Counted from the first letter of the stretch, positions 12,256 through 64,000 are shown. The stretch: 64,000 nt of DNA from Naegleria gruberi (GCA_000004985.1 GG738925.1); one strand, 5' to 3'. Numbers and translations are program-made. Notes: generated from the sequence alone by a model not told the origin.

Positions 12256-14163
12256 ATGTTATCTCATTACTCTAAATTAAGTATCATAACCTTCGTGGTC
12301 TTTCTCCGCCTTGTTATGATCACCAATGCTTACTTGCCTTACACTGAGACTCATCCAATGAAATTTGACACACAATTCTCCATTTCCCTTACTAGCTCAA
12401 ACACTATACTAAAGCCAGGTCCAATTACTAGATATTCTGATGCATACGAAAAGGCAATTGCTTTCTTTAGAAATCAGTATGGTCTCGATATTGCTGGAAA
12501 TGGCACTCGTTTGCCATCTGGTTGTGGGCTATTTACAGGAACCAATTCTGAATATGTTGTCAATTATGCCAAAGTTCGTGGTTTTCAAATTGTGGCTGGT
12601 AGTCAGGATGTTGGAGTCCATGAGGATTCGTTCAGAATTGTGGTAAGTGGGCCGATTGTTTCGAATGGAAATTATGGAAAGAATGGCGCCTTAATTGATT
12701 CAAATTCAGTTTTACATTTTGGATTTTATACCTTCTTTTGGAGAAGTAATGGAACAGTTCTATTTCCAAGAGTAATTTACTCTGGAATGATGCCAATCAA
12801 GGTCAATTCTAATTCTTCCATGATTAATTTCCAATTGACGTCCAGTTTATTTGGTCAAGGATATGCTCGTGGTTCTATTTTACAAAGAACTAATCCACAA
12901 AATGGAAAATTGTTTACAACCATTATCAGTTCTCATTCCTACCAAATGTCAATCACTGATTTCTCTCCAAAATGTTCAGTAATTACCTCTGAAAAGGATA
13001 TCTTCAATGAGGATATTGTAATCAAGTGGAATAATGTGCTATTGAGTGTGATTCGTGATTTGAAGGTATCTGCTCCAATAGCTTCAAGACAATTGGCTAT
13101 TCTTCACTCTGCTATTGATGATTCGCTGGTTGACTGTAAGAATTTCTCTTCAAATTGCTCTCGTTCCACTTTAGTGTCCATTATTTCACATGCTGCTAGT
13201 CGAGTATTGAAAAGTTTATACCCAACTCAAATAGATTGTTTCAATGCTGCTTTGAAAAGTGCTTTAGAATGCAATGAATGCAAAGAAGTATCCATTCCTT
13301 ATTTGGAAAATATCGGAAAGCCAGGAATTTTGGCAGCTGACAGAATATTAAAAGAAAGACAAGATGATGGAAGTTTGGACTTTACAGAATATCATTTCTC
13401 TGATGGTTTTATGAATTATCAATCACATGCTCCAAACTTTGTAAGAATTCCACTACTTCCTCATTGGTCAACTGTAAAACCATTTGTCATTCAAAATGCT
13501 TCATTGTATGATCAAGGACCACCTCCACCAATTGACTCACCAATATTTGAAAAAGATTACAATGAAACTCTTCATTTTGGAAGAGAAGATTCGAGTGTGA
13601 GAACTCAAGATCAAAGAAAAATTGCGTTATTTTGGGCTGATGGAGCTGGAACGAGTACTTCACTCGGACATTGGCTCATTATTTTACAAAACATTATTCG
13701 AAATCAGAATATTAAGGATACCTTTCGAATATCTACCTTATTTAAAGTATTGACAATTACAATGGCAGATGCTGCAATTGTTTGTTGGAATCACAAGTAT
13801 AAGTACAATGCCTTTCGTCCAATCACAGTCATAACTGAAAGAGAAAGCAATGAATGGTCACCACTCTTGTCAACTCCTGCATTTCCTGAATATTCTTCAG
13901 GTCACTCAACTCTATCTGCTGCTGCTTCGACAGTATTGAGCTTATTATTTGGCTCTGACGAAATATCCTTTGAGAGCGTTTCTGAGGGTCTAATTCACAC
14001 CATTCGAAAGTTCACTAAATTATCAGAGGCAGCCAAAGAAGCTGGCAAGTCAAGAATTTATGGTGGAATTCACTTTGAATATGCCAATCAAGCAGGGTTC
14101 GGTTCTGGCATTGCCATTGCTCAAACCGTCTTTCACAAATTATGCAATTTTACCACGTGTTAA
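12256..14163 (+). CDS. secreted PAP2-superfamily / vanadium-dependent haloperoxidase-like (acid-phosphatase-like) protein
   Basis: Signal peptide MLSHYSKLSIITFVVFLRLVMITNA. C-terminal PAP2/haloperoxidase motifs KYKYNAFRP...PEYSSGHS...SRIYGGIHFEYAN (KxxxxxxRP / PSGH / SRxxxxxH). Confidence 0.7.
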   Translation: MLSHYSKLSIITFVVFLRLVMITNAYLPYTETHPMKFDTQFSISLTSSNTILKPGPITRYSDAYEKAIAFFRNQYGLDIAGNGTRLPSGCGLFTGTNSEYVVNYAKVRGFQIVAGSQDVGVHEDSFRIVVSGPIVSNGNYGKNGALIDSNSVLHFGFYTFFWRSNGTVLFPRVIYSGMMPIKVNSNSSMINFQLTSSLFGQGYARGSILQRTNPQNGKLFTTIISSHSYQMSITDFSPKCSVITSEKDIFNEDIVIKWNNVLLSVIRDLKVSAPIASRQLAILHSAIDDSLVDCKNFSSNCSRSTLVSIISHAASRVLKSLYPTQIDCFNAALKSALECNECKEVSIPYLENIGKPGILAADRILKERQDDGSLDFTEYHFSDGFMNYQSHAPNFVRIPLLPHWSTVKPFVIQNASLYDQGPPPPIDSPIFEKDYNETLHFGREDSSVRTQDQRKIALFWADGAGTSTSLGHWLIILQNIIRNQNIKDTFRISTLFKVLTITMADAAIVCWNHKYKYNAFRPITVITERESNEWSPLLSTPAFPEYSSGHSTLSAAASTVLSLLFGSDEISFESVSEGLIHTIRKFTKLSEAAKEAGKSRIYGGIHFEYANQAGFGSGIAIAQTVFHKLCNFTTC

Positions 14164-14310
14164 AAAAACGCATTGTAAAAACAATAACTCTGTTTTGTAA
14201 CATTCTATTTTTTTCCAGCATTTTCTAGATTCCCGCCAAAACGGTGAACTTACAATTTTTTGTTCATCGGTATTGCGTTGTTTCTAACTCTCAACTTCAC
14301 TTTTTAAAAA

Positions 14311-17300
14311 ATGTCTGCAACATCAGCTGCCTCAACATCCGACAATACAAAGAAGAGAAAAACATCATTGATGATGGAAGCCTCGGAGGCTACTGAAATT
14401 TTTGAAAATGATCAGAATGAAAAGTTGATTGATGAAATTTCTGATGCGTTGCATAGATTGTCCCTCCAGAAGCAAACTGAAGAAATGATCAAGAAATTGG
14501 TCGAGCAAAAAGATCAAACAAGTGGTGAGAGTAAGAAATCATCCACTTTTGATAAACTTGCAATTCTTCAACAAATGCAACAGGAAGAGATGGTAGTGTT
14601 AAAAGTTGGTGGTATGTTGTGTGAAATTGTATTTTTAACAATCAATTTATTATGATGATTGACAGGTAAATTCTTTTATACAACAATGAAAACTTTGATG
14701 GGTGAAAGAGGTAACTCTAAAGTTCAAACAAAGAAAATTATTATTGCTGATAAAGTTGGTAAAGCAACTGCTGGTAAGAAGAGAGGTGAAGATGAAGAAG
14801 ATGAAGAAATGGATGAAGGTGGCGATGAAGAAGGTGGTGATGAAATGGATGAAGATGGTGAAAGACCAAAAGAAGACGGTATCTCATCACTTGAATATGT
14901 TTGTGCTCAAGATAACTTGTTTAAAGTCATGTTTGATTCTGGTTTTGGTATTGAAAGAGATGAAGCAAACAAGTCTGCAATTTCATTCCCTGACAGAAAT
15001 CCAGATTATTTCGAATATATTTTAGAACACTTAAGACAAGGTGGTAAAGTTAAATCTTTGGGTATTGAAAAGTTGAATGCTGACGAATTAGAAAATATTT
15101 TAGAAGAATCAAGATATTTTGCAACTGAAAAGTTATCAGAATATATCTTATTCTTACTTGACAAGTATCACAAATATGATTCAAATTTATCTAATTATGC
15201 TGAAATTGAAGAAATTTTGAATGATTCTGTACAAAATTTGAAAAAGGTTGAAATTCCACTCGAACAAATTCAACAAAGACTCAAATCATTTGAAGATTCA
15301 ATCAACGAATCCAAGAAGAGTGTTGGTGAATATTCACGCAAATTGGTTGAACAATATCAAAACTTTATTTTAGGTACTGATTTAGAAAGTGATTTATCTG
15401 TAAAGATTGATGTTTCAGGTCAAATTTTCACAATTCCATTCACAAGTTTGAGAAAGTATGAGAATTTCCTCCTTTCAAAATACATCTTATCACCAAACTT
15501 TGGTTTAAATGAAAATGGTTGTGTATTTATTGATAGAAATCCAAAGTTATTTGCCCTTATTCATGGTTACATTATCAGTGGTGGTAAATTTAATCATTTC
15601 CCAAAGAATCTTTCACAAGAAAAGAAACTTCAATTGAAACAAGAAGCTGAATTCTATGGTTTGACAACACTTGTTCAAGAATATCTTGATCCACTTCGTT
15701 ATCCAGTTGAAAAGATTGGTAAAGATAATATTGAATTGAAAGAAAAGGAAGATAAATTGAGAGAAATCTTTGCAAAGGAAAGAGAATCACCATTATTGAA
15801 TGATCCATATCTTTTATTATCACCCCTCTTCCAAAATTTAGAAGAAATTAAGAATCAAGAAAAGTATAGAATTGATATTGGTCACTGTCCAAAATTATTA
15901 GATTTAACAGATAAGACTAGATATTCTAGACAAGTTTCTAAACCAAGACTTGTTAATAATTTGAATGGTTTCAAATTGAATTGGCATAGATTCACTCAAG
16001 GTGCTTTGGATGGTCTTGATTGGAATAATGTTTTTGCTGCAGGTGGCGGTATTCTTGGTTGTTGTTTGAAAGATGATAATTTTGATAATAATACTGCAGT
16101 CTCAACAATTTATCCAACTTCTGTTAATGAAAGAACTGAAACAAATACTTCAAGAGCAGTATCAGTCATTGATGATGAAAATGATGAAAATGAAGCTGCT
16201 GATTTTGGTTTTTGGAGAAGATTTTCAAAGAAGGCAACAACTAAATCTACAGGTGAAGAAGGAGATGAAGAAGAGGAAGAAGAAACAGAACAAAAACAAG
16301 AAGTTATTAGCAAGTATCCAATTGGTAGATTCCACAATTTAGATTCTATGGGTAATTCTACTTTATACAGTCAATATAGCAGTCATTCCTATGCAAGTCT
16401 TGATCAAAGAAAGGCCCGTTCCTCTGAACTTGCTAAAACTATTTCTGAATCCACTACCTCAAACAAGGAAAATGCTCGTTTTATCCCTGATGCCAACATT
16501 CCTGCTCCATTTAAAAAATCAGATATCGATCTTTTCTTATATGCTTTGAGTGAAGAAGAAGCTGAAGAAAAGATTAAACATATTTATCAAACTATCAAGA
16601 AGAATATGAGTAGAAGATTATTAATGAATTATGCTGGAGATAAGATGGAACATAAGGGCTACTATTCTCATTTGAAGGATGAAGAGAAAGCTAAATGTAT
16701 TTATCAAGATGGTATTATTAGAACTGAAGAAGGTACTTTGATCAATGATGACGTTTTGGTTGTTAGAACTAAATTTGCTGTCACATTCTATTGTTACAAA
16801 CTCAGACCAATTCAAGTTGTTTTGAGAATTTACAAATCACCTGCAGAAGTTTTGTTAGGTTTTGATATTGATTGTGCAACTATGGGTTTTGATGGAAATC
16901 AAGTTTGGTCAAGTGCAAGAGCAAGAAGAGCTTTAATGTATCATACTAATCTTGTTGATGTTGATAGACAATCTACAACTTATGAATATAGATTGTACAA
17001 GTATAGTAAGAGAGGTTTCTCTGTTTCAATTCCAGGTTATGATACTGCTAAAGTTCAAAATCAATTGTTACAATATCCACGTAGATTCCCATTCACTTCA
17101 ACTGAATATTTGTTGCACGGTTTAGCAAGACTTATTGCTTTTGATAATTCTTGTCGTGCTAAGAATCCAAAACATATTTTAGGTGTTTATGATGATCGTG
17201 ATCCAAATGCAGCTCAATTAAGAGAAGAAAATAAGGCTCTCATCCTTTCTGGTGAATTGAATGTAAAGTCAGACTATCTTGATTTGAATATTATCAAATC

Positions 17301-32254: not shown

Positions 32255-33175
32255 ATGCAAGACTTTGATGCACAAAAATTTGCTAAACAAATAACACAAT
32301 ATATGAATAATAGAGGAAGTGGTGGAAGTGGAGGTAGAGCTTCAAAAGGATTCGGATTACTTGCATCAGGATTGGCCCTCATGGGTATTGCTGGTTTTTC
32401 TCTTTATAATTCAGTATTTGTTGTTGAAGGAGGTTTTAAAGCAATTAAATTTAATAGATTTACAGGAGTTGGTGATAGAGTTTATGGAGAAGGTTATCAC
32501 TTACTTATTCCTGGTATTGAAAGACCAATTATTTATGATCAAAGAGCAACACCAAAGGTTATTTCTTCAAATACTGGTTCTAAAGATTTGCAAACAGTCA
32601 ATTTGAGTATTCGTGTTCTTTTTAAACCTGATGTTAATAGATTGGATCAAATATATAGAAGTTTGGGAATGAATTATTCTGATAGAGTTATGCCAAGTAT
32701 TGTCACTGAAGTTTTAAAGAGTGTTGTAGCTCAATTTACTGCTGCTGAATTGCTTACAAAACGTCCAGATGTCAGTGCCAGAATTAGAGATTCATTAGTT
32801 GCTCGTGCCAGAGATTTCAATATTATCATTGATGATGTTGCTATTACTCATTTAAGATTTGGTGATGAATACAGTGCTGCTGTTGAAAGAAAACAAGTTG
32901 CTCAACAAGAAGCTGAACGTGCCAAGTTTATTGTTGAAAAGGCAAAGGAAGAAAAGAAATCAATGGTTTTGAAAGCTGAAGGTGAAAGTGAAGCTATTAG
33001 ATTGGTTGGTGATGCTACCAAAAACAATACTGCCTTCTTGGATTTGAGAAAAATTGAAGCTGCTCAACAAATTGCTGACACAATTAGTCAATCACAAAAC
33101 AGAATTTTCCTCTCATCTGACACTTTGCTCTTGAACTTGCAAAGTTTGGCTCAAACAACCAACATTGATAAATAA
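32255..33175 (+). CDS. prohibitin (PHB2-like, SPFH/band-7 domain)
   Basis: Strong family match across the whole ORF: FNRFTGVGDRVYGEGYHLLIPGIERPIIYD...TAAELLTKRPDVSARIRDSLVARARDFNIIIDDVAITHLRFGDEYSAAVERKQVAQQEAERAKFIVEKA. Confidence 0.9.
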   Translation: MQDFDAQKFAKQITQYMNNRGSGGSGGRASKGFGLLASGLALMGIAGFSLYNSVFVVEGGFKAIKFNRFTGVGDRVYGEGYHLLIPGIERPIIYDQRATPKVISSNTGSKDLQTVNLSIRVLFKPDVNRLDQIYRSLGMNYSDRVMPSIVTEVLKSVVAQFTAAELLTKRPDVSARIRDSLVARARDFNIIIDDVAITHLRFGDEYSAAVERKQVAQQEAERAKFIVEKAKEEKKSMVLKAEGESEAIRLVGDATKNNTAFLDLRKIEAAQQIADTISQSQNRIFLSSDTLLLNLQSLAQTTNIDK

Positions 33176-33427
33176 ATTATTTCATTGACTCTCACTATTA
33201 AATCTTAATCCATTCAATCTATATACGATAGAATCCCTTAATTAGAGATGGAATTGCATTGGAGATTAAACTTTTAATCTTCGATCGCAGTAAAATGGCT
33301 AGTCCGCCAAAATCGGACAGGAACTTGCTTTTATTTTAAAATAAAAAAAAATTATCATCACAAGATTATAAATTGATTCCAATTTCATCATCTAACTAAA
33401 TTCATAGTAAAATAATAATTAAATAGG

Positions 33428-34432
33428 ATGGTTGAATTTGCCACTCATACACCAGAAGCAGCGCTTCTCCATTTTTTGGAACCTTTTGATCGTGTATTAT
33501 TCTCATGGTTGGAAAATTATGTTGATAATTTGGAGTTTGTGAAGGCTAATTTTCACTATTGCTACATGCATAATTATCCAAACGGAATTGTTGATGATGT
33601 TAATCATGGAAGACAACCATTCCCATTCCTTGTTGCTGGATTGTCATTATTCTCTTGTTTCCTTCTCTTTGTTTTATCTAAAGTGTTATCTCCACTCCTT
33701 TTTAAAGCCTACAGAAATTTAAGAGATGATTCCGATAGAGAAAAGTGGAATGTTAAATTTGTTAGTGCTCTTCATGCAGCATTTGTTTTCCAAGGAGCTT
33801 TTCGTTGTTTATTATATGGAGGAGGTTTATTCTTTAATTCTGATCCCATCGATGATGGTTTGGTTGGTTTCCAAAAATTTTCTTGTGGATATTATACTGA
33901 TTTGAGTAGATTTTACATGGCAATTACTTTTGGATATATGTTTTATGATTTCTGGGTTTGTATTAGAGCTTACGGATTAACATTGGAAGGTATTTTCCCA
34001 TCTCTTGTGATTCACCATTTCAATATTATCATTTCCTTCTTGTTGGCTCTCAAACTTGGAATGGGTCACTATTATTCTTTAAGTTTCATGACTAATGAAA
34101 TCAGTCAACCATTCTTGCATTTGAGTTGGTTCTTAATTAAGAGTAAGGTTCCACAATTGCATCCTGTTTCAATTGTGAATGGTTTAATGTTGGTTCTCAC
34201 ATTCCTGGGAAGTAGATTCTTCTTTAATGCTTACATTTTCTATCACTTTATTGAAAAGACTTTTTCATTCCAACTTACTAACTGTTTGGGAATTGGTACA
34301 TGGACTTGTTTGATCCATGTTGCTTGTAACTGGGATTGGTGTTGGTTGATGGTTAAGCAAATTAAGGGAATGATTGGAAAGAAGAAGGCACCACCAGCCA
34401 AAACTGAAGACGCAAAGGTTAAATCCGAATAA
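33428..34432 (+). CDS. TLC-domain (TRAM/LAG1/CLN8) multi-pass membrane protein
   Basis: Multiple TM helices and the TLC core HHFNIIISFLLALKLGMGHYYSLSFMTNEISQPFLHLSWFL. The C-terminus is basic. Confidence 0.7.
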   Translation: MVEFATHTPEAALLHFLEPFDRVLFSWLENYVDNLEFVKANFHYCYMHNYPNGIVDDVNHGRQPFPFLVAGLSLFSCFLLFVLSKVLSPLLFKAYRNLRDDSDREKWNVKFVSALHAAFVFQGAFRCLLYGGGLFFNSDPIDDGLVGFQKFSCGYYTDLSRFYMAITFGYMFYDFWVCIRAYGLTLEGIFPSLVIHHFNIIISFLLALKLGMGHYYSLSFMTNEISQPFLHLSWFLIKSKVPQLHPVSIVNGLMLVLTFLGSRFFFNAYIFYHFIEKTFSFQLTNCLGIGTWTCLIHVACNWDWCWLMVKQIKGMIGKKKAPPAKTEDAKVKSE

Positions 34433-34492: not shown

Positions 34493-37400
34493 CTACTCGT
34501 TTAGTATTCTGTAGGAGAGCTTTGGGAAGAGAACAGTTTCCAAAAACCATGAGCTCAAAACAATTTCAATGAAAAGAATGGAGAAGAGAGAGAATGAAAG
34601 TAGAATGAGGGTTCCACACAGCAACGTTCCTACCATACCAAAGATGTCTGAACCTCTGATAACTACCGATTTGAATTCACTCCTAGGGCACAAAATAACA
34701 GCATTATTAATACCTTTGGAAGGTTTGTCAAGGATTGGAATAACAAAGAAAGGTTTTGGAGCAGGAGTGATACGTTTGTTAGATTGTTGCACTTGTGAAA
34801 TGTCATAATAATTTGAGGAAATGAAACATTTTGTTGAGGCGGATCCTAAGGCATAAAGACCATACTTATCAAATTCAGCTGAATATTCTGATGTTTGAGG
34901 ATAATAATTGTTTTGATTGAATTGATAGATAACATCACCTGCCTGTGAGCAACAAACCAAGTGATCACTATAACTCAATGCCAACACAAGGAAAGTTACA
35001 ACCGATACAACAGCAATAAAGAGTAAAATTAGAGCTGGTATAAGAATTTGAAGTTGTCTTGCTCTTCTACTCTTGGTTCTGGATCCAAACAAGCTGAACC
35101 AAAATGTAAGTCCAAAACAAAATGGATCATTGTCTCGAAGTGTTTCAAATGTTGTGAGTTTCCTCTTCTTAATCTTTTCATAAAACTTGCAAGAAAATCC
35201 AATCATTAGAATGATGGCAACAAAACAAACCAAAGCAGTTATTGAAATAAGAGCATAGGTAGTAAATGGAAGGAATGTAAGCTCATTTGAAATTTTACCA
35301 TCAGCCACAATAAAAGATATAATTTCGTGATGATAACTCTCATCTTGATTCCACACAGCCAAATACAAAGAGCTATTGACTGACTTTTGGTTTGCTGCCA
35401 ATCCTGAAATATTGTTATAAGAAGAATAGTTATGAATAGAATTCAATGGGAATGTTAAGGAGTATTTGATCATAAAGAGTGAGGCAGACTCTGTGGCTGA
35501 TTTAGAGTATTTGTATACTTCCTTTTCTAATTTTGAATCTTTTGGTAGTATTTCATCAACATTCTCCACAGATAATTTTTCGAAAGCACATGTCAAAGAG
35601 AGATGGTCAAAGTTTGTTAAATTAGTTATATCCCAAAAGGTAAGTTCAATACGGAAGTTAGTTGTGGCCAAGTAATCATTTGGATTCAAAGTTGTTTCCT
35701 TAATTAAGCCTTCATTTTCTGCGGCTTTTTCACTAAAGTTCTTATAAAAAGCTCTCAAAATTTCATCAAGGTCAAAAGAGAAAAAGAATGGAATTCCTCT
35801 CTTTCTCTTTTTGGTTGAGCTTAAGGACTTGGAGATTTGTAATATTGAATCAGTAGTACCATTAACTCCTGTAGAATTATCGTTACCAACTAGCAAAACC
35901 GGATTTAATCCATCATAACGTTTGGTTAGACTAACTACTGATGGGAAGGAGTTATATGAAACAACTGTGAGATCAATGTATGTTGAATTACATGTATTCC
36001 TGGTATTATTCCCTTCATAAATCGACTGATAAATAATTCTATCCAATGAACTAGTATAATAGTTATATTGAGGTACAGTGATAAGTAGATTGGAAAATGC
36101 ATCGGCAACCAAATTACCTTCCTCAATGAAATTAATAGCTGTTTCATTGTATCCTACTATATTTGGAATAACATAAGGTTCCCTTCTATAAATTATGTGA
36201 GTTCCTCCATTATTCGTGCTGGCTACATAATTCAATGTAAGAAGCATGTCTGTATAGAATGTTGAATTGGGAAAATTGAAGGAATTGTCAAAGGATGTAT
36301 CGTAGTCATCAGTATAGGGAGCTTCTCCAACTTTTGAATAAAATAATAATGGATTATCTGAGGTGTTTCTAATCAAAACTACAGAAGTATGGATGACATG
36401 ATATGGAAGAATATAATCTGAGCTTGATATTTTGGCTCCTGTGCTCAATAAATCAAAATCAGAAGAGTACATCTTTGAATTCAAGGTGTCAGTGTAGATT
36501 TGAGGGGTATCTATCCAGAAATCAACTTTGACACTTGATGTATATTCTACATCATCTTTTTCAACTTTGTAAATAAATCCAAAATACCACTCATACTCAT
36601 ATATTGTGTTGACAAGCTCAATATGGCCACTAATCTCATAACAGTCTCCTGTTTGCTTGAAATCATAGAGCTGGGTACTTGGAAATAAGCTCTTTCTAAT
36701 ATATACTTCCATGGAAGTAATTGGGACATGGTCGAGTAATTTAAAGGAGTATCTTAAAAGATTGCCCAAAAATTTTGTACTATTGGAAGCTCTTTCAATT
36801 TTGAGTTTTGTTGAATAATGAATAGTGTTTGGCTCCTTCTTAACATATGTGACTGAATACTGTGTATTTCCATAACTTAAGAGAATTCTTTCATCATCAG
36901 TCAAATAGGATCTGACCTTGTAGTAACACTTAAATGGACAAGCCTTTCCGTAGACAGCTATGTAGTAAGCTTGTTTTGTGTTCGACACATCCTTGTACAA
37001 CCAAGCATTCTTCTTTTCTGTATCCAATTTAAAGGATGTAGGAAGTGTAAAATAGGATGAAGATGGTAATTTTGTCATTTGCCAATCATAAGGATAATTT
37101 GGTGTTTGAGAAGAGCTACTTTGGGCAGATGAAATCAAAATGTTGACAGAGTTTGCGTAAATGTCTGTAGTTTCAAATAAAACATTCAGAATGGCACTAT
37201 CAGAATATGAAGTAACGTAATAATAACGCCATTGATAGAGCTGCAAATCTGAATCCACAATTTGGTCACTGTTAATGGCAGTGTTAATCATATTGGTAAT
37301 CTTTGAATATACTGTGTAGGATATACTATCACTTGTCTGGGAAAAGGAGGTAAACACAATTGAGAATGTGTTAGATATACTCGATTCAAATTTAGAGGAG

Positions 37401-38956
37401 AAATATGGGATTGAAAGAGTATATTGGTATTGAGCTGAAACTACAATCAACTCCTCAGGTAATACCTTTCTACTATATAAATCTTGACCATTGTTTGATA
37501 TCTTGATATTAAATCCTATCTTGTCTGAAAATAGATAGTTTATCATTACTATAGGATTTGAAAAAGTATCTACATCAGATGGTGATATTGTTATTTTGAA
37601 CTTGTAACTATCTAGAGAGTAGTGGGATATTCTATCGGCAAGATTAGAACCAAGTGTTAATACTCTAGTAATAGCATTTGAAAAAATATTTAGAGAAACT
37701 GATCCAGATAATGAAGTAGAAGTATCAATAGACTGAGAAGCAGTGTGAGGGCTCAGTGAATAACTCAAAGTTGTTGAGGAAACAGTGGTATTATCAATTG
37801 TGAAATACATCCTCAAGTAAAGGTAACTCAAATATGAAGGAGAAACAGTAACATTAATAGTTCTATTATTATTATCGTCGTAATAAGAATCTATTATAAT
37901 ATTATCAAATGTGCATGAATAAACTAAATTGCTTTTAATGCAATAAGTAGGATAAACAGGACATTTTAAAAACCCATTGTTATATGTACATGAGCTATTT
38001 GACAAAAATGTATATTCATAAGGAAATATAATTGAAAGATTTTGTAATGTCAAATGAGATAATGAAGAAAATTGAAAATTAAAAGTAAAACTAGACGTAG
38101 AATCTGGTCCATTATTTGCTACTAGTAAATCAAAGAAATATATATCCTTTGTGGCAAGTGTTACATCAATATTCCAATTACTACCATTTCTTGAAGATAT
38201 GGCATAATTTGTTATATTTACATTATTACTAACATAACAGTAATTCAATAATATTTCTGTTATACAAATATTACCTCCAGCACTAATGTAATTTGGTTTA
38301 AATATTGTTGTTGATGATTTTGTAAGTTGATTCAAAATATCATACTTTCTCGATAAAAATGAAAATTGTGAACATCCTCCACAAGAACATCCTCCTGATA
38401 CAACGTTTGTGTCTGTCATATCGTAATTATTCAAACTAATTGTCATATTTCCAGTTTGGGAAACATCATTCAGTTTGCATTTATCATACTGATAATAAAC
38501 TACTCCATGCATGGAATAAAGCTTATTTGATGATTGAATTGGATTTGAAAATGTAATTTCTCCATCATTCCAATTATTGCTGCCTGAACATGTGTATAAA
38601 CTTTGATCACAAATCTTACAAGTTGATGGAAGTGCATTTGTATTAGAGTATGAAAGAAGAACGTAATATTGAGAAAATCCATTTGGGCATCTATATGTAC
38701 TACCTTCAACACCATATGGGAATATAACACCACAAAGAAGGAAAATCAAACAAATCATAATACAATTTTTTAAATCCAATTTAGACTTTTTAAATATTTC
38801 CACACCATCAAAAAGAAATTCTGTAATATAATCAAACTCTCGCACCACTAAACTATTGTCAAATAATAATAAATGTTTGTTTTGAAGTCGGTGCTCCATT
38901 TCCGTTCGTTTTGTTAATGGTTGTAGTTGTGAGGCAACAACACCATTCTCATGCAT
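34493..38956 (-). CDS. giant (1487 aa) surface glycoprotein: N-terminal signal-anchor, ~1150-aa N/S/T/Y-rich ectodomain with an N-terminal Cys cluster, C-terminal ~4-TM region
   Basis: Single uninterrupted ORF with aaaaaaaaATG start. Hydrophobic segments at ~aa 60-80, ~1195-1217, ~1300-1325 and ~1440-1470. Dozens of N-x-S/T sites. No recognised catalytic domain. Confidence 0.65.
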   Translation of the reverse strand: MHENGVVASQLQPLTKRTEMEHRLQNKHLLLFDNSLVVREFDYITEFLFDGVEIFKKSKLDLKNCIMICLIFLLCGVIFPYGVEGSTYRCPNGFSQYYVLLSYSNTNALPSTCKICDQSLYTCSGSNNWNDGEITFSNPIQSSNKLYSMHGVVYYQYDKCKLNDVSQTGNMTISLNNYDMTDTNVVSGGCSCGGCSQFSFLSRKYDILNQLTKSSTTIFKPNYISAGGNICITEILLNYCYVSNNVNITNYAISSRNGSNWNIDVTLATKDIYFFDLLVANNGPDSTSSFTFNFQFSSLSHLTLQNLSIIFPYEYTFLSNSSCTYNNGFLKCPVYPTYCIKSNLVYSCTFDNIIIDSYYDDNNNRTINVTVSPSYLSYLYLRMYFTIDNTTVSSTTLSYSLSPHTASQSIDTSTSLSGSVSLNIFSNAITRVLTLGSNLADRISHYSLDSYKFKITISPSDVDTFSNPIVMINYLFSDKIGFNIKISNNGQDLYSRKVLPEELIVVSAQYQYTLSIPYFSSKFESSISNTFSIVFTSFSQTSDSISYTVYSKITNMINTAINSDQIVDSDLQLYQWRYYYVTSYSDSAILNVLFETTDIYANSVNILISSAQSSSSQTPNYPYDWQMTKLPSSSYFTLPTSFKLDTEKKNAWLYKDVSNTKQAYYIAVYGKACPFKCYYKVRSYLTDDERILLSYGNTQYSVTYVKKEPNTIHYSTKLKIERASNSTKFLGNLLRYSFKLLDHVPITSMEVYIRKSLFPSTQLYDFKQTGDCYEISGHIELVNTIYEYEWYFGFIYKVEKDDVEYTSSVKVDFWIDTPQIYTDTLNSKMYSSDFDLLSTGAKISSSDYILPYHVIHTSVVLIRNTSDNPLLFYSKVGEAPYTDDYDTSFDNSFNFPNSTFYTDMLLTLNYVASTNNGGTHIIYRREPYVIPNIVGYNETAINFIEEGNLVADAFSNLLITVPQYNYYTSSLDRIIYQSIYEGNNTRNTCNSTYIDLTVVSYNSFPSVVSLTKRYDGLNPVLLVGNDNSTGVNGTTDSILQISKSLSSTKKRKRGIPFFFSFDLDEILRAFYKNFSEKAAENEGLIKETTLNPNDYLATTNFRIELTFWDITNLTNFDHLSLTCAFEKLSVENVDEILPKDSKLEKEVYKYSKSATESASLFMIKYSLTFPLNSIHNYSSYNNISGLAANQKSVNSSLYLAVWNQDESYHHEIISFIVADGKISNELTFLPFTTYALISITALVCFVAIILMIGFSCKFYEKIKKRKLTTFETLRDNDPFCFGLTFWFSLFGSRTKSRRARQLQILIPALILLFIAVVSVVTFLVLALSYSDHLVCCSQAGDVIYQFNQNNYYPQTSEYSAEFDKYGLYALGSASTKCFISSNYYDISQVQQSNKRITPAPKPFFVIPILDKPSKGINNAVILCPRSEFKSVVIRGSDIFGMVGTLLCGTLILLSFSLFSILFIEIVLSSWFLETVLFPKLSYRILNE

Positions 38957-39196: not shown

Positions 39197-39385
39197 ATGG
39201 AAGGATGTTGTGGAGGTGGAATATTTAAAGAAGATATTATTTTAAAGATGAAACAATTTGCTGCCTCGTCATCGGGATCGGAAAGTATGAGCATTATGGA
39301 TATGATGCATTTTGTAGCATCTGTTATTTTCCCAGTTCTATTATTTGTGTTTTGTTTGTACATTGTTTTAAAGAGAAAAGATTAA
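39197..39385 (+). CDS. possible small tail-anchored membrane protein (62 aa)
   Basis: aaaaaaATGG start, C-terminal TM VASVIFPVLLFVFCLYIVL. It sits in the gap between two minus-strand genes. A small ORF could be spurious. Confidence 0.3.
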   Translation: MEGCCGGGIFKEDIILKMKQFAASSSGSESMSIMDMMHFVASVIFPVLLFVFCLYIVLKRKD

Positions 39386-42151
39386 TTGGCCTTCTCAACA
39401 TCTTCTTGGATTCTTTTGTAGGCATTCATCCACTTAATTTCAGCAAATATATATCCAATTGTTTTGCTTGAAAGACCTAACCCTGCCCTAGTCAAGTTGG
39501 TGATGAGTGTGAGAGTACTACTATTGTGTGGATTATTAGCTTCTTTAACTTCCGATTCCTTGAATCTCTTTTTCCAAATATCCTTATTTGAGTTTGGATC
39601 AATTTCTAGCATAAATGGAACAAATTCTTCTAATTGTAGTCTATCTTTCTCGAATTTAACGAGAACTTTACTTTCTCCCATTTCTGTCCAATATTCTGTT
39701 ACATCTCTGAATGCAATAATGAAGAAAGTGTTCAATTTGGAAAGGAAATATTGATTGCTCTCAAAACAAACAGGATCGGCCATAATAATGTCATTAATAA
39801 GAGTTTCTCTTTCTTCTGTTGGAACTTCTTGATAGATAGATCCTAAAATTTCAATAACAGCTTCTCTCTTCAGAGGTGATTTGGAGTCCTTAGCATAATT
39901 GTTCCATTTTGCTCTTAATGCATGTAAGGCAAGTGAAACACTTGCACCGAATGCTGGATCATTAAGACCCTCCATAGATTTACAAAATTCCAGAATATCC
40001 TTAGCATTGTTAGTAAACTTGTTTGAATGGAATTAAATACTTACAGCGTACTTGGCTCTAAACTCTTCGCAAGCAGTCAAAAACTCAAAGCTGACCTTAT
40101 GTACAATCTCAGGTAATACAAACAATTGATCCAAAACATCATACAGCAGATAATCAATGCTTTTTACCTCCTTTTGAGGCTGTCTATAATCTTTGTAGTG
40201 TTGTACATATGTATCTAAAATAATCTCTCTCACTTCCTTTAAGGTCATCTTTCTTGTTGTCACATCTGTAATAATCTTATTTCCATATCTCGATTTATAA
40301 ACATCCCATATTTTGCTCATTGCTTGAGTATTTGGTGAAATACCAATTCTGCTTAGGGTTGGTTTGAGGAAAGTGAACTTCTCATCTTCTTCAAGAGGGT
40401 CTACAACTTCACATTCAAGAGGAAGAATAGGATCGAAATTAGGATTGTTAATGGCGTCCTGCATATTTGGATGGTTTTTGTAATAATGCAATTGAGAGTG
40501 AATAAGTTTCATATGAGTAACACCATGGGGTACTTCAACCACTTCTGGAGTGTACTGAGGTGTGATTGTTGAACGATGAGCAAGTTTGAATTTACCATCA
40601 CTTTTAGAAAAGAATACTTCTATTGAAGATCTCAAACTCAAAGCATCCAGGCCCATCATTGGTGAAGTTGTATCATTACTCACACAAAATGCAAGTTTTG
40701 GCTTTTTCTTTTGTTGATCTTCGGCTTTTGTTTTGATTCTAAGAGTGTTTTCGTCCAACTTATTCACTTTTTCGTGAATTATCATCATTTCATTATTCAG
40801 TAACTGAGCATCAGAAACAAATTCTGTCTTTATGGTCGATTTCTGTAAAATGGATTAGTTAGAATGGCCACACATTTCAACTTACATCTACTTGCTTAGC
40901 TTGATGGATTTCAAATGAGTAGTCTTCAATCCTTCTATTTTCAAGCATTTCCAATTGCTCGTGTAACTTTGTGAGTACTGATAGATCTTCTTGTATATCA
41001 TGCATATCTTTCTTATCTTTCATCTGGAAACGTTTCATTACAAAGTATCTCTTCTTCTTTGTTTCGTTGTCTTCCTTATAGGATCTTAAAAACTTAATTT
41101 CAGTTCTTAATTTAGTATTGTTCTTTTCAGTTTCGTCGAGTTTTGCTCTTAATTCCTTATAGGATTGCTCAGTACTCTTTTTAAGATTTGAACACTCCTC
41201 TTTCAGTTTCTCATGAGCTGCAGTAAGCTTTTTTAATTCTTCTCTACAGTCGCTGTGTACTCGTTTTTCATTAGACAATTCTTTTACAAGCTTTCCCTTT
41301 TCAAGCTCACTCTCTGAAATGAGTTCATAATCTGCTGCAGCTTTTTTCATTTCATCCAGCAGTCCAATATCTCTGTCGTTCACTACTAACGAATAAAAAG
41401 GTACTTTAAATCTATCATCCACCTCTGATTTAACAAATAGACATTCCTCAAATACTCTTCTTATGGAAGAAAATATATAAGCTTCACCTCCAATAGAATT
41501 ATTTTCCAATTCTTTCAATATTGAAAGACAGTAGTCTATTAAGGTTACACTTTTAAATCTATCTCTCGAATCCTCTGCTTTATCAATTAATTCCTTCAGT
41601 CCTACTTCCATCAGAATCAGAGATGATCTCCACTTTTTCATATTCCCAGCTACTAATAACTCTGCATCTTCATTTAATGTTGCTTTTGCATATTTTGGAT
41701 TTCTATCGGAATGGAGTGAACCATATCTTGGTCTTGCCTTCAGAGAAACATATTTATCCCTAAAAACATTCTTTTTAACAAGAGAATTTGTTGATGAAAT
41801 ATCGTGATCATCCGATATTGGGTGATCCACAAAATTTAAAGCAGAAATGGCTTTCCTTCCATACATTATTGATGAAACTTTGATGATCAAAAGTTTGGAT
41901 GAAAATTTTCGTAGTTTTTTTTGGAGGGAGTATTTATACTCTTTTAGTGTGTTGCCAGCGGACAGAGAGTCAGTTTTCCAGTAAAGTACAACCTTAAGAA
42001 CGGCATTAATTAACTTCGTTAAGTTAGTTAACTTGACTGTTAATACTAATATCAAAAATTTGTTATCATCATAATTAAACTCAACACGACATTGATTTCG
42101 TCCTTCTCGAAACTCTTCATTACAAATTACCACAAAAAAACACCAACACAC
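39382..42151 (-). CDS. large coiled-coil protein (hypothetical). Exons: complement(join(39382..39999,40045..40842,40886..42151)); start likely near 41866.
   Basis: Three ORF-track pieces join in frame through 43-nt (GTAAGT...TTTTACAG) and 45-nt (GTAAGT...TTTACTAACAATGCTAAG, TACTAAC branch) introns. There is a central coiled coil (ELEKGKLVKELSNEKRV...). The first ATG in the 5' ORF is MYGRKAIS. Confidence 0.55.
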
Positions 42152-61278: not shown

Positions 61279-62238
61279 ATGTTTCTACCAAAACATCCAT
61301 CAAAGCCTTCAGTTACTTCCTCTTCTTCACTTGGAGTTGATCAACGACAAGGCTCTGTATCATCATCATCTTCAACAATTGTCTCACACCCTAAAAGGAG
61401 AATTACACCAACTCTTGTAGATCCCTCAACAGCTACAACAACTACCACATCGGGATTGACCACTCAACAACCAATAACATCATCGGAAGGATATTCTCAT
61501 AGTAATAGTAGTGGTAGTAGTAGTTTATTTAAAAATCTAAATGATGATGAAGAATCAATTAATAGTTCATCTGATGATGATGATTATGATGATTATAATG
61601 ATGAAGATGGACAATTAACAGATGGAGGAGAATATGAAGAATATGAAGAGGATAATGATGAAGAAATGATTCATAATATTAATGAATCCATTCAATTACA
61701 ACAACCTCCTTCATCAAAAAGAGTTAAAAGATCAACATCAACATCTTTATCATCTGGTCAAAAAAAACCAATCATAACCAGAATTATTGAAGAATATTCT
61801 GAAAATGAAATTCAACAAGATACTAACTTTTTAACAAATTATGATATATCAGCAATATTTTCATCATTATCATCTACTAAAAGAACCATATCATCTATTA
61901 ATTCTTCATCTATTAATAATTCTAATAATTCTAATAATTCTAATACATATTCATTCTATTATTTAAAAGATGATATAGTATTATATGAAATGAAAAATAG
62001 ATTACATTTTGGTAAATTAAATGAAACTGAAAAGTTTGAAAAGAAATTAACTAATGATATTATTAATAAATTAAATAATAGTATAGATTTAAATTTATAT
62101 CCACAAATAAGTAGAGGTGATATTAAAATTACACAAATTAAATTAAAAACAACGATTGAAATTATAACACCCATTGAAATTAATTGTTATTATTCATATA
62201 ATAATATTGAATATATTATTATTACAAAACGATTCTAA
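61279..62238 (+). CDS. S/N/D-rich hypothetical protein; 3' end runs into the assembly gap
   Basis: ORF with aaaaaATG start, poly-S, poly-D/E-Y and N-rich tracts. The ORF 62174..63223 spanning the N-run suggests the gene continues across the gap; the track reading frame across Ns is arbitrary. Confidence 0.4.
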   Translation: MFLPKHPSKPSVTSSSSLGVDQRQGSVSSSSSTIVSHPKRRITPTLVDPSTATTTTTSGLTTQQPITSSEGYSHSNSSGSSSLFKNLNDDEESINSSSDDDDYDDYNDEDGQLTDGGEYEEYEEDNDEEMIHNINESIQLQQPPSSKRVKRSTSTSLSSGQKKPIITRIIEEYSENEIQQDTNFLTNYDISAIFSSLSSTKRTISSINSSSINNSNNSNNSNTYSFYYLKDDIVLYEMKNRLHFGKLNETEKFEKKLTNDIINKLNNSIDLNLYPQISRGDIKITQIKLKTTIEIITPIEINCYYSYNNIEYIIITKRF

Positions 62239-62243
62239 TATAT

Positions 62244-62801
62244 NNNNNNNNNNNNNNNNNNNNNNNNNNNNNNNNNNNNNNNNNNNNNNNNNNNNNNNNN
62301 NNNNNNNNNNNNNNNNNNNNNNNNNNNNNNNNNNNNNNNNNNNNNNNNNNNNNNNNNNNNNNNNNNNNNNNNNNNNNNNNNNNNNNNNNNNNNNNNNNNN
62401 NNNNNNNNNNNNNNNNNNNNNNNNNNNNNNNNNNNNNNNNNNNNNNNNNNNNNNNNNNNNNNNNNNNNNNNNNNNNNNNNNNNNNNNNNNNNNNNNNNNN
62501 NNNNNNNNNNNNNNNNNNNNNNNNNNNNNNNNNNNNNNNNNNNNNNNNNNNNNNNNNNNNNNNNNNNNNNNNNNNNNNNNNNNNNNNNNNNNNNNNNNNN
62601 NNNNNNNNNNNNNNNNNNNNNNNNNNNNNNNNNNNNNNNNNNNNNNNNNNNNNNNNNNNNNNNNNNNNNNNNNNNNNNNNNNNNNNNNNNNNNNNNNNNN
62701 NNNNNNNNNNNNNNNNNNNNNNNNNNNNNNNNNNNNNNNNNNNNNNNNNNNNNNNNNNNNNNNNNNNNNNNNNNNNNNNNNNNNNNNNNNNNNNNNNNNN
62801 N
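62244..62801. other. assembly gap (558 N)
   Basis: Run of n characters. Confidence 1.
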
Positions 62802-63223
62802 TATTAACTTGTAAATATATTTATGTACATAATAATACATTTATTAAATATAGAAATAAATATTATGATATTATAAATGATAGAGATTTATTCATGGAAG
62901 ATGATGAAGATGATTCTGAATATTTTATTAAAATGGCAATTAGACAATTTTCAAATTATTATTTAATATGTACATTAACAAATAAGGGAATTGTTGATAT
63001 TTATAAATTTGATGATTCAATTAAACAAGAAAATGAAAAAATTTCATTAGAATTTAGATTTTCATTAAAAAAATTGAATTTTATAACTCAATATAAAAAT
63101 AATGAAAATAATTTTGAATGTGAATATTTAAATTTTATAAATTCACAAATAATAATTATTTGTTTAAAAAATGGTGATTTAATTAGATTTGAACCTATTT
63201 TATATTTTAATTATAATATTTAA
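62802..63223 (+). CDS. 3' coding fragment downstream of the gap (…KYIYVHNNTFIKYRNKYYDII…FEPILYFNYNI*), possibly the end of the 61279 gene
   Basis: Open frame from the gap edge to a TAA at 63221..63223. The frame relation across the gap is unknown. Confidence 0.3.
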
Positions 63224-63249
63224 TAAATAATATTCCAAATATAGTAATA

Positions 63250-63896
63250 TTATTTTAAAGCCATTGTTAAATAATCTGAAAAACTATTTTGATAAGTTTC
63301 ATAATATTCACTATAACTACATCTATCACAACTTAATGTAATAAACATTCTATTTTGTACATTAAATATTTGTGATAATAATCCACCTGATTCTCTTACT
63401 TGTCCTTTATGTAATTCTTTATATCCACATTTTTTCTATTATTTTTTTTTATATTTAAATAGTATTTATATTGTAAATAGTATTTAACAGTATTTAATAG
63501 TATTTATATTGTAATAATTATTTAATAAATAGTACTTACACATTTCTGATGATGTTGTTTTAATATTTCTTCTTGTTTGGGAAATATTTTGTTACTAGTA
63601 TTAGTAGATGAAGAATCAACAATTGATAATCCAATATTATTTAAAGTATTTAAAGTTAATTGTTTAAAATCATCCTTTTCCGATGTTAATGATGGTGTAT
63701 CTAATATTAATTTATTAATTATTGAATTATTTGATGATTGTGATGGTGATGATATTATTGTAGGTGATGATGAATTGTGATGTGTAATTGATTGTAAAAT
63801 ATTATTAATTCTACCCTTCCTAATTACATAAACCATCAATAATCTAAATAAATATAATATTACTCCTTTATTAACTAGTGTTGTTAATACTACCAT
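63250..63896 (-). CDS. small membrane protein with a C-terminal Cys4 zinc-ribbon. Exons: complement(join(63250..63435,63540..63896)).
   Basis: N-terminal TM (GVILYLFRLLMVYVI) and an S-rich linker. Exon 1 ends ...HHQKC|, then a 104-nt GTAAGT...AATAATAG intron, then KKCGYKELHKGQVRESGG...LSCDRCSYSEYYE. Splicing assembles CKKC...(36)...CDRC. Confidence 0.5.
63440..63530. repeat. short tandem AT-rich repeat (AGTATTTAAYAGTATTTATATTGTAAAT-like units) inside the intron of the preceding gene
   Basis: Direct repetition of 'atagtatttatattgtaaat' / 'agtatttaacagtatttaatagtatttatattgtaat'. Confidence 0.5.
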
Positions 63897-64000
63897 TTTT
63901 TTATTAGTTTATTAATTTTAATTGATTTGAATATCATCTAATGCATTTGAATGAATAGCAATTAAAGGAAGCACTTCAATTTATAATAATATTCATATTG

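Follow-up and report, generated by a model that had tools for sequence, protein, structure and literature searches.

In a 64,000-nucleotide stretch of the Naegleria gruberi genome (GCA_000004985.1, GG738925.1), referred to as the window, the gene NAEGRDRAFT_82127 encodes a protein of 1487 amino acids (aa). A beta-rich region of about 1150 residues is followed by three transmembrane (TM) helices, and the strongest conservation locates on the membrane and cytosolic side. The long region is probably extracytoplasmic and disulfide-bonded, because a hydrophobic leader, conserved cysteines and a positive-inside charge pattern fit translocation. The protein appears to represent an orphan family, vertically inherited and limited to Heterolobosea as far as named sequences go. 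Our tentative preference is for a glycoprotein that works like a receptor or an adhesion molecule at the surface or in the endocytic pathway, with its conserved cytosolic face binding a partner that is likewise conserved. Public databases already list the protein as an unnamed prediction; the family delineation, the domain map and the conserved 3-TM/cytosolic cassette are new.

The open reading frame (ORF) occupies positions 34493-38956 on the minus strand, as do all features of the protein given below. It starts at the first ATG downstream of an in-frame TAA, runs through 1487 codons in a single uninterrupted exon, and ends with a TAG stop at 34493-34495. As the first-pass annotation of this DNA had stated, it is intronless and the longest ORF of the window, the runner-up having 1188 codons. 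The translation matches the deposited ‘predicted protein [Naegleria gruberi]’ (EFC36839.1, XP_002669583.1, NAEGRDRAFT_82127, UniProt D2W2C7) across 100% of its length, and the deposited gene model likewise consists of one exon. NAEGRDRAFT_82127 is a genuine gene, because its ORF is far longer than chance allows, it exactly matches the deposited model, and a syntenic single-exon orthologue exists in Naegleria fowleri. The earlier annotation itself had asked whether low-complexity sequence could imitate such an ORF. Non-coding sequence that is open by chance would be in line with the biased composition (N+S+T+Y make up 35.6% of the protein) and the AT-rich genome. Against this, the probability of 1487 open codons is about 3e-54 at the base composition of the window. 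TRF and a direct-repeat finder detected neither tandem repeats nor long direct ones in the gene, in agreement with the earlier statement that the DNA is not repetitive, and neither BLAST self-comparison nor hhalign among seven segments revealed an internal protein repeat. The orthologues, with position-specific conservation, conserved cysteines and conserved synteny, refute the artefact, and we give it practically no weight.

Hydropathy analysis revealed four strong peaks, at aa 65-83, 1236-1254, 1309-1327 and 1445-1463, of which the three C-terminal ones coincide with long helices in the AlphaFold models (modeled helices at aa 1230-1264, 1278-1290, 1297-1328, 1437-1468 and 1470-1486). TM helix 1 (aa 1230-1254; 35195-35269) is predicted from hydropathy, AlphaFold and charge to pass from outside to inside. 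It is followed by a basic loop (aa 1255-1296; 35069-35194) containing the conserved peptide SCKFYEKIKKRKLTTFETLRDNDPFCF, with the family pattern SCKFYEKxxKxxLTTFDxLxxNDPxCF. This loop carries 21 K+R per 100 aa, versus 7 in the ectodomain. By the positive-inside rule, its richness in K+R indicates a cytosolic location, which therefore puts the next, four-cysteine loop outside and the C-terminus inside. TM helix 2 (aa 1297-1328; 34973-35068; strong hydropathy helix at about 1304-1328) has the invariant residues R1297, Q1301 and Q1303 at its cytosolic entrance. The outer loop between TM2 and TM3 (aa 1329-1436; 34649-34972) contains four invariant cysteines (1335, 1336, 1377 and 1423), a variable middle, and then a conserved ...LLCxR...V.xRGxD strand leading into TM helix 3 (aa 1437-1468; 34553-34648). 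In TM3, D1437, G1440, G1448 and E1464 are invariant, and E1464 sits near the cytosolic end. The protein closes with a C-terminal helix, SWFLETVLFPKLSYRILNE (aa 1469-1487; 34496-34552), with invariant W1470, E1473 and P1478.

The first-pass annotation had counted four TM helices in the last ~300 residues. We find three strong ones (about 1230-1254, 1304-1328 and 1437-1468). The supposed fourth corresponds to a hydrophobic stretch inside the basic loop, PFCFGLTFWFSLF (aa 1278-1290), which has 13 residues, is too short to cross a bilayer, and is flanked by basic sequence on either side. A true TM helix here would place the basic SRTKSRRARQ segment outside, together with the C-terminus, and the invariant cysteine loop in the cytosol, which we consider less likely.

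Superimposing the family on this map shows where conservation is concentrated. Between the two Naegleria proteins, identity starts at 31% over the first 100 residues, stays at 32-57% along the ectodomain, and rises to 62-80% in aa 1201-1487. In the C-terminal module, conservation peaks in the cytosolic loop, the basic stretch and TM3 and is lowest in the middle of the outer loop. An alignment of eight sequences (A2) contains 19 invariant positions, which also include Q1338 in the TM2-TM3 loop and G1435 at the start of TM3. The polar residues R, Q, Q, D, E, W and E of the module are all invariant, and six of the eight sequences end in -NE.

At the N-terminus, the hydrophobic segment CIMICLIFLLCGVIFPYGV (aa 65-83; 38708-38764; Kyte-Doolittle 2.58) is directly followed by EG|ST and has a counterpart in N. 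fowleri and Willaertia. The hydrophobic segment that the first-pass annotation took for an N-terminal signal-anchor is hence present, located after 64 residues. It could be either a signal peptide or an uncleaved signal-anchor. The preceding extension (aa 1-64; 38765-38956) is not alignable to N. fowleri; the frame stays open for 69 codons there (p ~0.003), and alignment of the N-terminal 85 aa with N. fowleri shows no similarity, though the frame is open in both species. Residues 1-64 may therefore be read in either of two ways: as a cytosolic tail, short and divergent, that precedes a signal-anchor, or as untranslated sequence with the true start at Met67, which would give a classical signal peptide (…VEG|ST). 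With a signal peptide and with an anchor alike, the next ~1150 residues should be luminal or extracellular.

The ectodomain begins with a Cys-rich head (aa 90-348; 37913-38689), which is all-beta in the AlphaFold model. Of the 30 cysteines of the whole protein, 14 fall into this head, and the Cys-rich stretch quoted in the first-pass annotation indeed begins at aa 90. Twelve of the head cysteines (aa 90-332) are conserved in N. gruberi, N. fowleri and Willaertia, which fits a disulfide-bonded structure. These three vahlkampfiid proteins are full-length and show the head; in the remaining homologues, which are truncated, nothing aligns with it. A non-repetitive beta-sandwich region follows (aa 349-1056; 35789-37912), as indicated by AlphaFold models and structural matches, and its best-modeled jelly-roll or sandwich spans aa ~691-815. 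Two modules of the ectodomain bear a V-Y-x-R-x-x-x-P-T-x-x-x-Y-D type motif, as in PPC and galactose-binding-like domains: VYIRKSLFPSTQLYDF at aa ~755-770 and FYSKVGEAPYTDDYD at aa ~872-886. Next to the membrane lies an alpha/beta domain (aa 1057-1221; 35294-35788; block pLDDT mostly 50-80) with the motif FRIExTFWDI, which is present in all homologues of sufficient length.

The AlphaFold models were built on shallow family alignments, with a mean pLDDT of 56.9 for aa 620-1487 and 48.7 for aa 84-760. The modeled secondary structure is consistent and almost purely beta from aa 95 to ~1020. On the basis of these models, the ectodomain may comprise roughly seven different beta or alpha/beta domains. 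Structural matching of either model repeatedly brings up the ectodomains of SIDT1/2 and SID-1, with E ~0.01 and low TM-scores.

The composition of the protein is as biased as the first-pass annotation had described. N+S+T+Y reach 38-50% per 100-aa block across aa 101-700, and only one window ORF of at least 200 aa has a higher overall share (40.1%), at the AT-rich end of the window. On the other hand, the ‘dozens’ of N-glycosylation sequons and the ‘huge glycosylated’ ectodomain of that annotation are not borne out. We counted 21 sequons, all within aa 170-1194 (1.41 per 100 aa), whereas shuffling the residues yields 22.9 ± 4.2. The observed number is at chance level, the density is similar to that of other ORFs of the window, and heavy glycosylation was an assumption. 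N-glycosylation is possible, though the sequence gives no signal for it.

We also notice a polybasic KKRKR at window position ~35807-35821 (aa 1046-1050), in a low-confidence linker before the membrane-proximal domain. It resembles a kexin/furin-type cleavage site, and neither the N. fowleri nor the Willaertia orthologue has it.

An exhaustive HMMER scan of 1.84 billion (1.84e9) cluster representatives with aa 289-1487 returned ten proteins at E<=1e-3, the query and nine relatives, with phmmer E values for family members from 0 to 1e-44. The N. fowleri protein FDP41_013656 (XP_044565155.1) has 1584 aa, 52% identity and a single exon. The Willaertia magna protein ABK040_002864 has 1392 aa and 32% identity, and a second member falls into the same 90%-identity cluster. 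The Acrasis kona protein AKO1_007649 has 678 aa and lacks the N-terminal part; it is probably a truncated model. The remaining six relatives are fragments from metagenome or SRA assemblies. The N. fowleri, W. magna and A. kona proteins are homologous to the query in the core of the ectodomain, in the domain next to the membrane and in the 3-TM module. All three are named ‘hypothetical protein’ and none is characterized; the labels of all relatives read ‘hypothetical’ or ‘uncharacterized membrane protein’. Including N. gruberi, the named members come from four species of three genera, all heterolobosean, with one match per species, and the scan detected no second protein, i.e. no paralogue, in N. 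gruberi. The named members share significant similarity over their full length, which includes the FRIExTFWDI domain and the 3-TM module with the invariant patterns CC..C..C, RGxD and E..W..E..P (alignments A1 and A2). At the N. fowleri locus (L004), the gene order is that of the window, namely a multi-exon gene, the target, TLC and Band_7, so that orthology is supported by synteny. The claim of a lineage-specific protein thus agrees with relatives that are solely heterolobosean or metagenomic.

Environmental DNA adds further members. One contig (L005) has a frame of 1124 aa or more that is still open where the contig ends; it aligns with query aa 424-1487 at E = 1e-79. Another (L002, 1-1847, JGI metagenome 3300075910) carries a member, from an organism with ~30% G+C, in which the motif order is the same but the coding sequence is interrupted: three ORFs lie in two frames, separated by 11-31 nt. 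The interruptions resemble very short introns or frameshifts. Only the last piece (P0007) had been called as a gene, and short ‘family members’ in the databases are therefore fragments. A scan of metagenome contigs with alignment A6 gave a single locus, on the contig of homologue P0004, and an exact look-up of the target protein on assembled contigs returned no record. A word-indexed protein search behaved differently. With the full protein it returned only the query itself and missed the 52%-identical N. fowleri orthologue; with the 260-aa C-terminus it gave no match, the source protein included; and with the A2 profile it re-found two known metagenome fragments only. Low-complexity words saturated all of these searches. 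A result of ‘only self’ from such a search is unreliable for compositionally biased proteins.

Comparison with known families supports the earlier statement that no known domain is recognizable. Pfam, run on the whole protein, the family members and cut-out domains, and NCBIfam gave nothing at threshold. PDB sequences, searched by phmmer with the full protein and by hmmsearch using profiles A2 and A5, yielded noise only (E>=0.3), which argues against membership in a family represented there. Over ten family members, Pfam at E<=1 yielded a single match, in P0004, to the teneurin-3-like galactose-binding domain GBD_Tenm3 (PF23093), with 19.3-22.6 bits over 41 residues and a gathering cut-off of 27. 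We rejected membership in PF23093, since the query has no match and P0004 stays below the cut-off. The target shares fold class and motif with GBD-like, PPC and P-domain jelly-rolls (GBD_Tenm3, Kex2 P-domain, Tk-SP C-terminal domain), but it has neither an associated protease nor a teneurin architecture. SID-1, SIDT1 and SIDT2, which are dsRNA and cholesterol transporters, resemble it in general plan, a jelly-roll ectodomain plus a multi-TM domain. However, members of the SID1 family combine two jelly-rolls with an 11-TM domain, whereas the target combines roughly seven predicted domains with three TM helices. It is not similar to them in sequence and lacks a Pfam SID-1_RNA_chan match; the ectodomain likeness is that of a generic fold, and SID1/SIDT membership was rejected. 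Meckelin, ribophorin II, NOMO and gp210, which we also considered, were dropped, as no profile match supported them.

With an uncleaved N-terminal anchor, the protein would resemble tetraspanins: it would cross the membrane four times, keep both ends in the cytosol, and have an outer loop with CC and two further cysteines between the last two helices. Tetraspanins, in contrast, have a tiny first loop (~25 aa), a CCG motif and closely spaced TM helices. In the target the first outer loop would be ~1150 aa, the CC lies 7 residues past TM2 and is followed by x-Q (S/N/G/V/R/L, then Q) rather than G in seven of eight members, and a long, conserved loop joins TM1 to TM2 in the cytosol. No member has a Pfam match to tetraspanins (PF00335), and we rejected this assignment as well. 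That the protein is a divergent member of a described family (tetraspanin-like 4-TM, teneurin-type GBD, SID1 or PPC-domain) missed by sequence methods draws on this topology and on the sub-threshold GBD_Tenm3 match. The Pfam yield over the ten members, the empty PDB profile searches and the different CC context and loop size make it very improbable. Judged from sequence, the target appears to stand outside every described family that was testable.

How could such a protein work? We propose that the N-terminal hydrophobic segment leads ~1150 residues into the ER lumen, and from there to the outside of the cell or the inside of a vesicle. The ectodomain would be a chain of differing beta-sandwich modules (jelly-roll, galactose-binding-domain-like), with the disulfide-rich head at its tip and the alpha/beta domain beside the membrane. 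Between TM1 and TM2, the conserved basic loop would face the cytosol, with its short hydrophobic stretch in the inner leaflet. Disulfides would staple the small outer loop between TM2 and TM3, and the conserved C-terminal helix would lie on the cytosolic side. In this arrangement, the fast-evolving ectodomain may bind an external or luminal ligand, probably glycan-bearing (prey, substrate or matrix), and the slowly evolving TM module with its cytosolic face may keep a conserved partner bound, either within the cell or within the membrane. Acting as a coupler of the receptor or adhesion type, the protein would probably cycle via the endocytic or phagocytic pathway. The jelly-roll fold class commonly serves carbohydrate and protein binding, and the near all-beta models and the sub-threshold teneurin GBD match in P0004 favor this receptor- or adhesion-like reading. 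The large ectodomain with a C-terminal multi-TM module, which the first-pass annotation had already proposed, is seen consistently in hydropathy, charge distribution, conserved cysteines and AlphaFold secondary structure. Taken as a whole, that annotation holds in its account of the ORF, cysteines, composition, missing domains, layout and lineage, and fails in its sequon number and TM count, while its heavy glycosylation is an assumption.

Several findings weigh against a receptor or adhesion molecule. The sequon density does not indicate heavy glycosylation; the number of predicted spans is three or four, depending on whether the N-terminal segment is cleaved; the low-confidence models give generic fold matches that are uninformative on what is bound; and searches of literature and supplements gave no match for the gene or protein identifiers and no expression data. 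In addition, a single copy with conserved synteny suits a housekeeping endomembrane protein equally well. This leads to the main rival, a resident luminal glycoprotein of an endomembrane compartment (lysosome/phagosome, contractile vacuole, ER or Golgi) with a structural, protective or assembly role, comparable to LAMP/LIMP- or NOMO-type proteins. One match per named species, synteny and the lack of paralogue expansion are housekeeping-like rather than typical of an adhesin family, and a long beta-sandwich rod resembles luminal spacer proteins. A Y-x-x-hydrophobic motif at the C-terminus resembles lysosomal sorting signals. Such a YxxPhi-like motif stands six residues from the C-terminus in four of the eight members, which fits a luminal resident; its restriction to half of the members counts against the receptor- or adhesion-like reading. 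Against the luminal resident, Willaertia and two metagenome members do not share the motif, and its position is within a predicted helix. The sequon density is not raised, contrary to what a protective glycocalyx would lead one to expect, and the fast evolution of the ectodomain is more typical of externally exposed proteins. Synteny, the lack of paralogues and the partial motif fit a luminal resident just as well, and we regard it as a serious possibility, if an unlikely one on balance.

Another reading takes its start from the TM module, the best-conserved part of the protein. The 3-TM module might oligomerize into a channel or transporter or regulate one, with the ectodomain as a gate, sensor or substrate-capture device, loosely SID-1-like. 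The invariant R1297, Q1301, Q1303, D1437 and E1464, in TM helices or at their ends, and the recurrence of SIDT1/2 and SID-1 ectodomains in the structural matches would fit this. However, that likeness amounts to generic jelly-rolls, and the 11-TM domain of the SID-1 family is absent, so that we consider a channel or transporter improbable. A more specific form of the receptor- or adhesion-like reading is that the FRIExTFWDI domain, the 3-TM module and the basic loop constitute an undescribed receptor-transducer cassette invented in Heterolobosea, linking the recognition of prey or substrate glycans by the jelly-roll ectodomain to actin-based crawling and phagocytosis. We put this forward as speculation and find it rather doubtful. 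If it were true, the N. fowleri protein would be a large, parasite-specific, surface-exposed protein with no relative detected beyond Heterolobosea.

Orphan families are common in Naegleria, and this one is a lineage-restricted ‘predicted protein’ that has never been described. Its practical value lies in a defined family with a domain map and a conserved membrane/cytosolic module, open to tagging or knock-down. If the protein is surface-exposed, the N. fowleri orthologue would be a candidate antigen for diagnostics or vaccines, and the family would offer a handle on prey or substrate sensing by heterolobosean amoebae. The first-pass annotation, in mentioning expression during aggregation, implied a social amoeba; N. 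gruberi is a heterolobosean amoeboflagellate and not Dictyostelium or any other social amoeba.

The window is gene-dense, with a G+C content of ~32%. Downstream of the target, a convergent TLC-domain gene and a Band_7/prohibitin gene (Pfam) lie at 32255-34432 on the plus strand, and the same order and orientation occur at 12819-15762 of the N. fowleri locus. Directly upstream of the target, in both Naegleria species, is a multi-exon gene. In the window it extends over 39385-41860 on the minus strand, where the ORFs 39382-39975 and 40033-40788 and further pieces to ~41860 are its exons. The orthologue is an 826-aa N. fowleri gene without a Pfam domain, with 41-72% identity per exon.

At the far end of the window, a run of 558 N at 62244-62801 marks an assembly gap, and the ORFs 62174-63223 and 62235-62840 are artefacts spanning it. 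Past the gap, at 62802-64000, G+C drops to ~17-18%, compared with ~32% over most of the window; at 56-61 kb it is already 23-27%.

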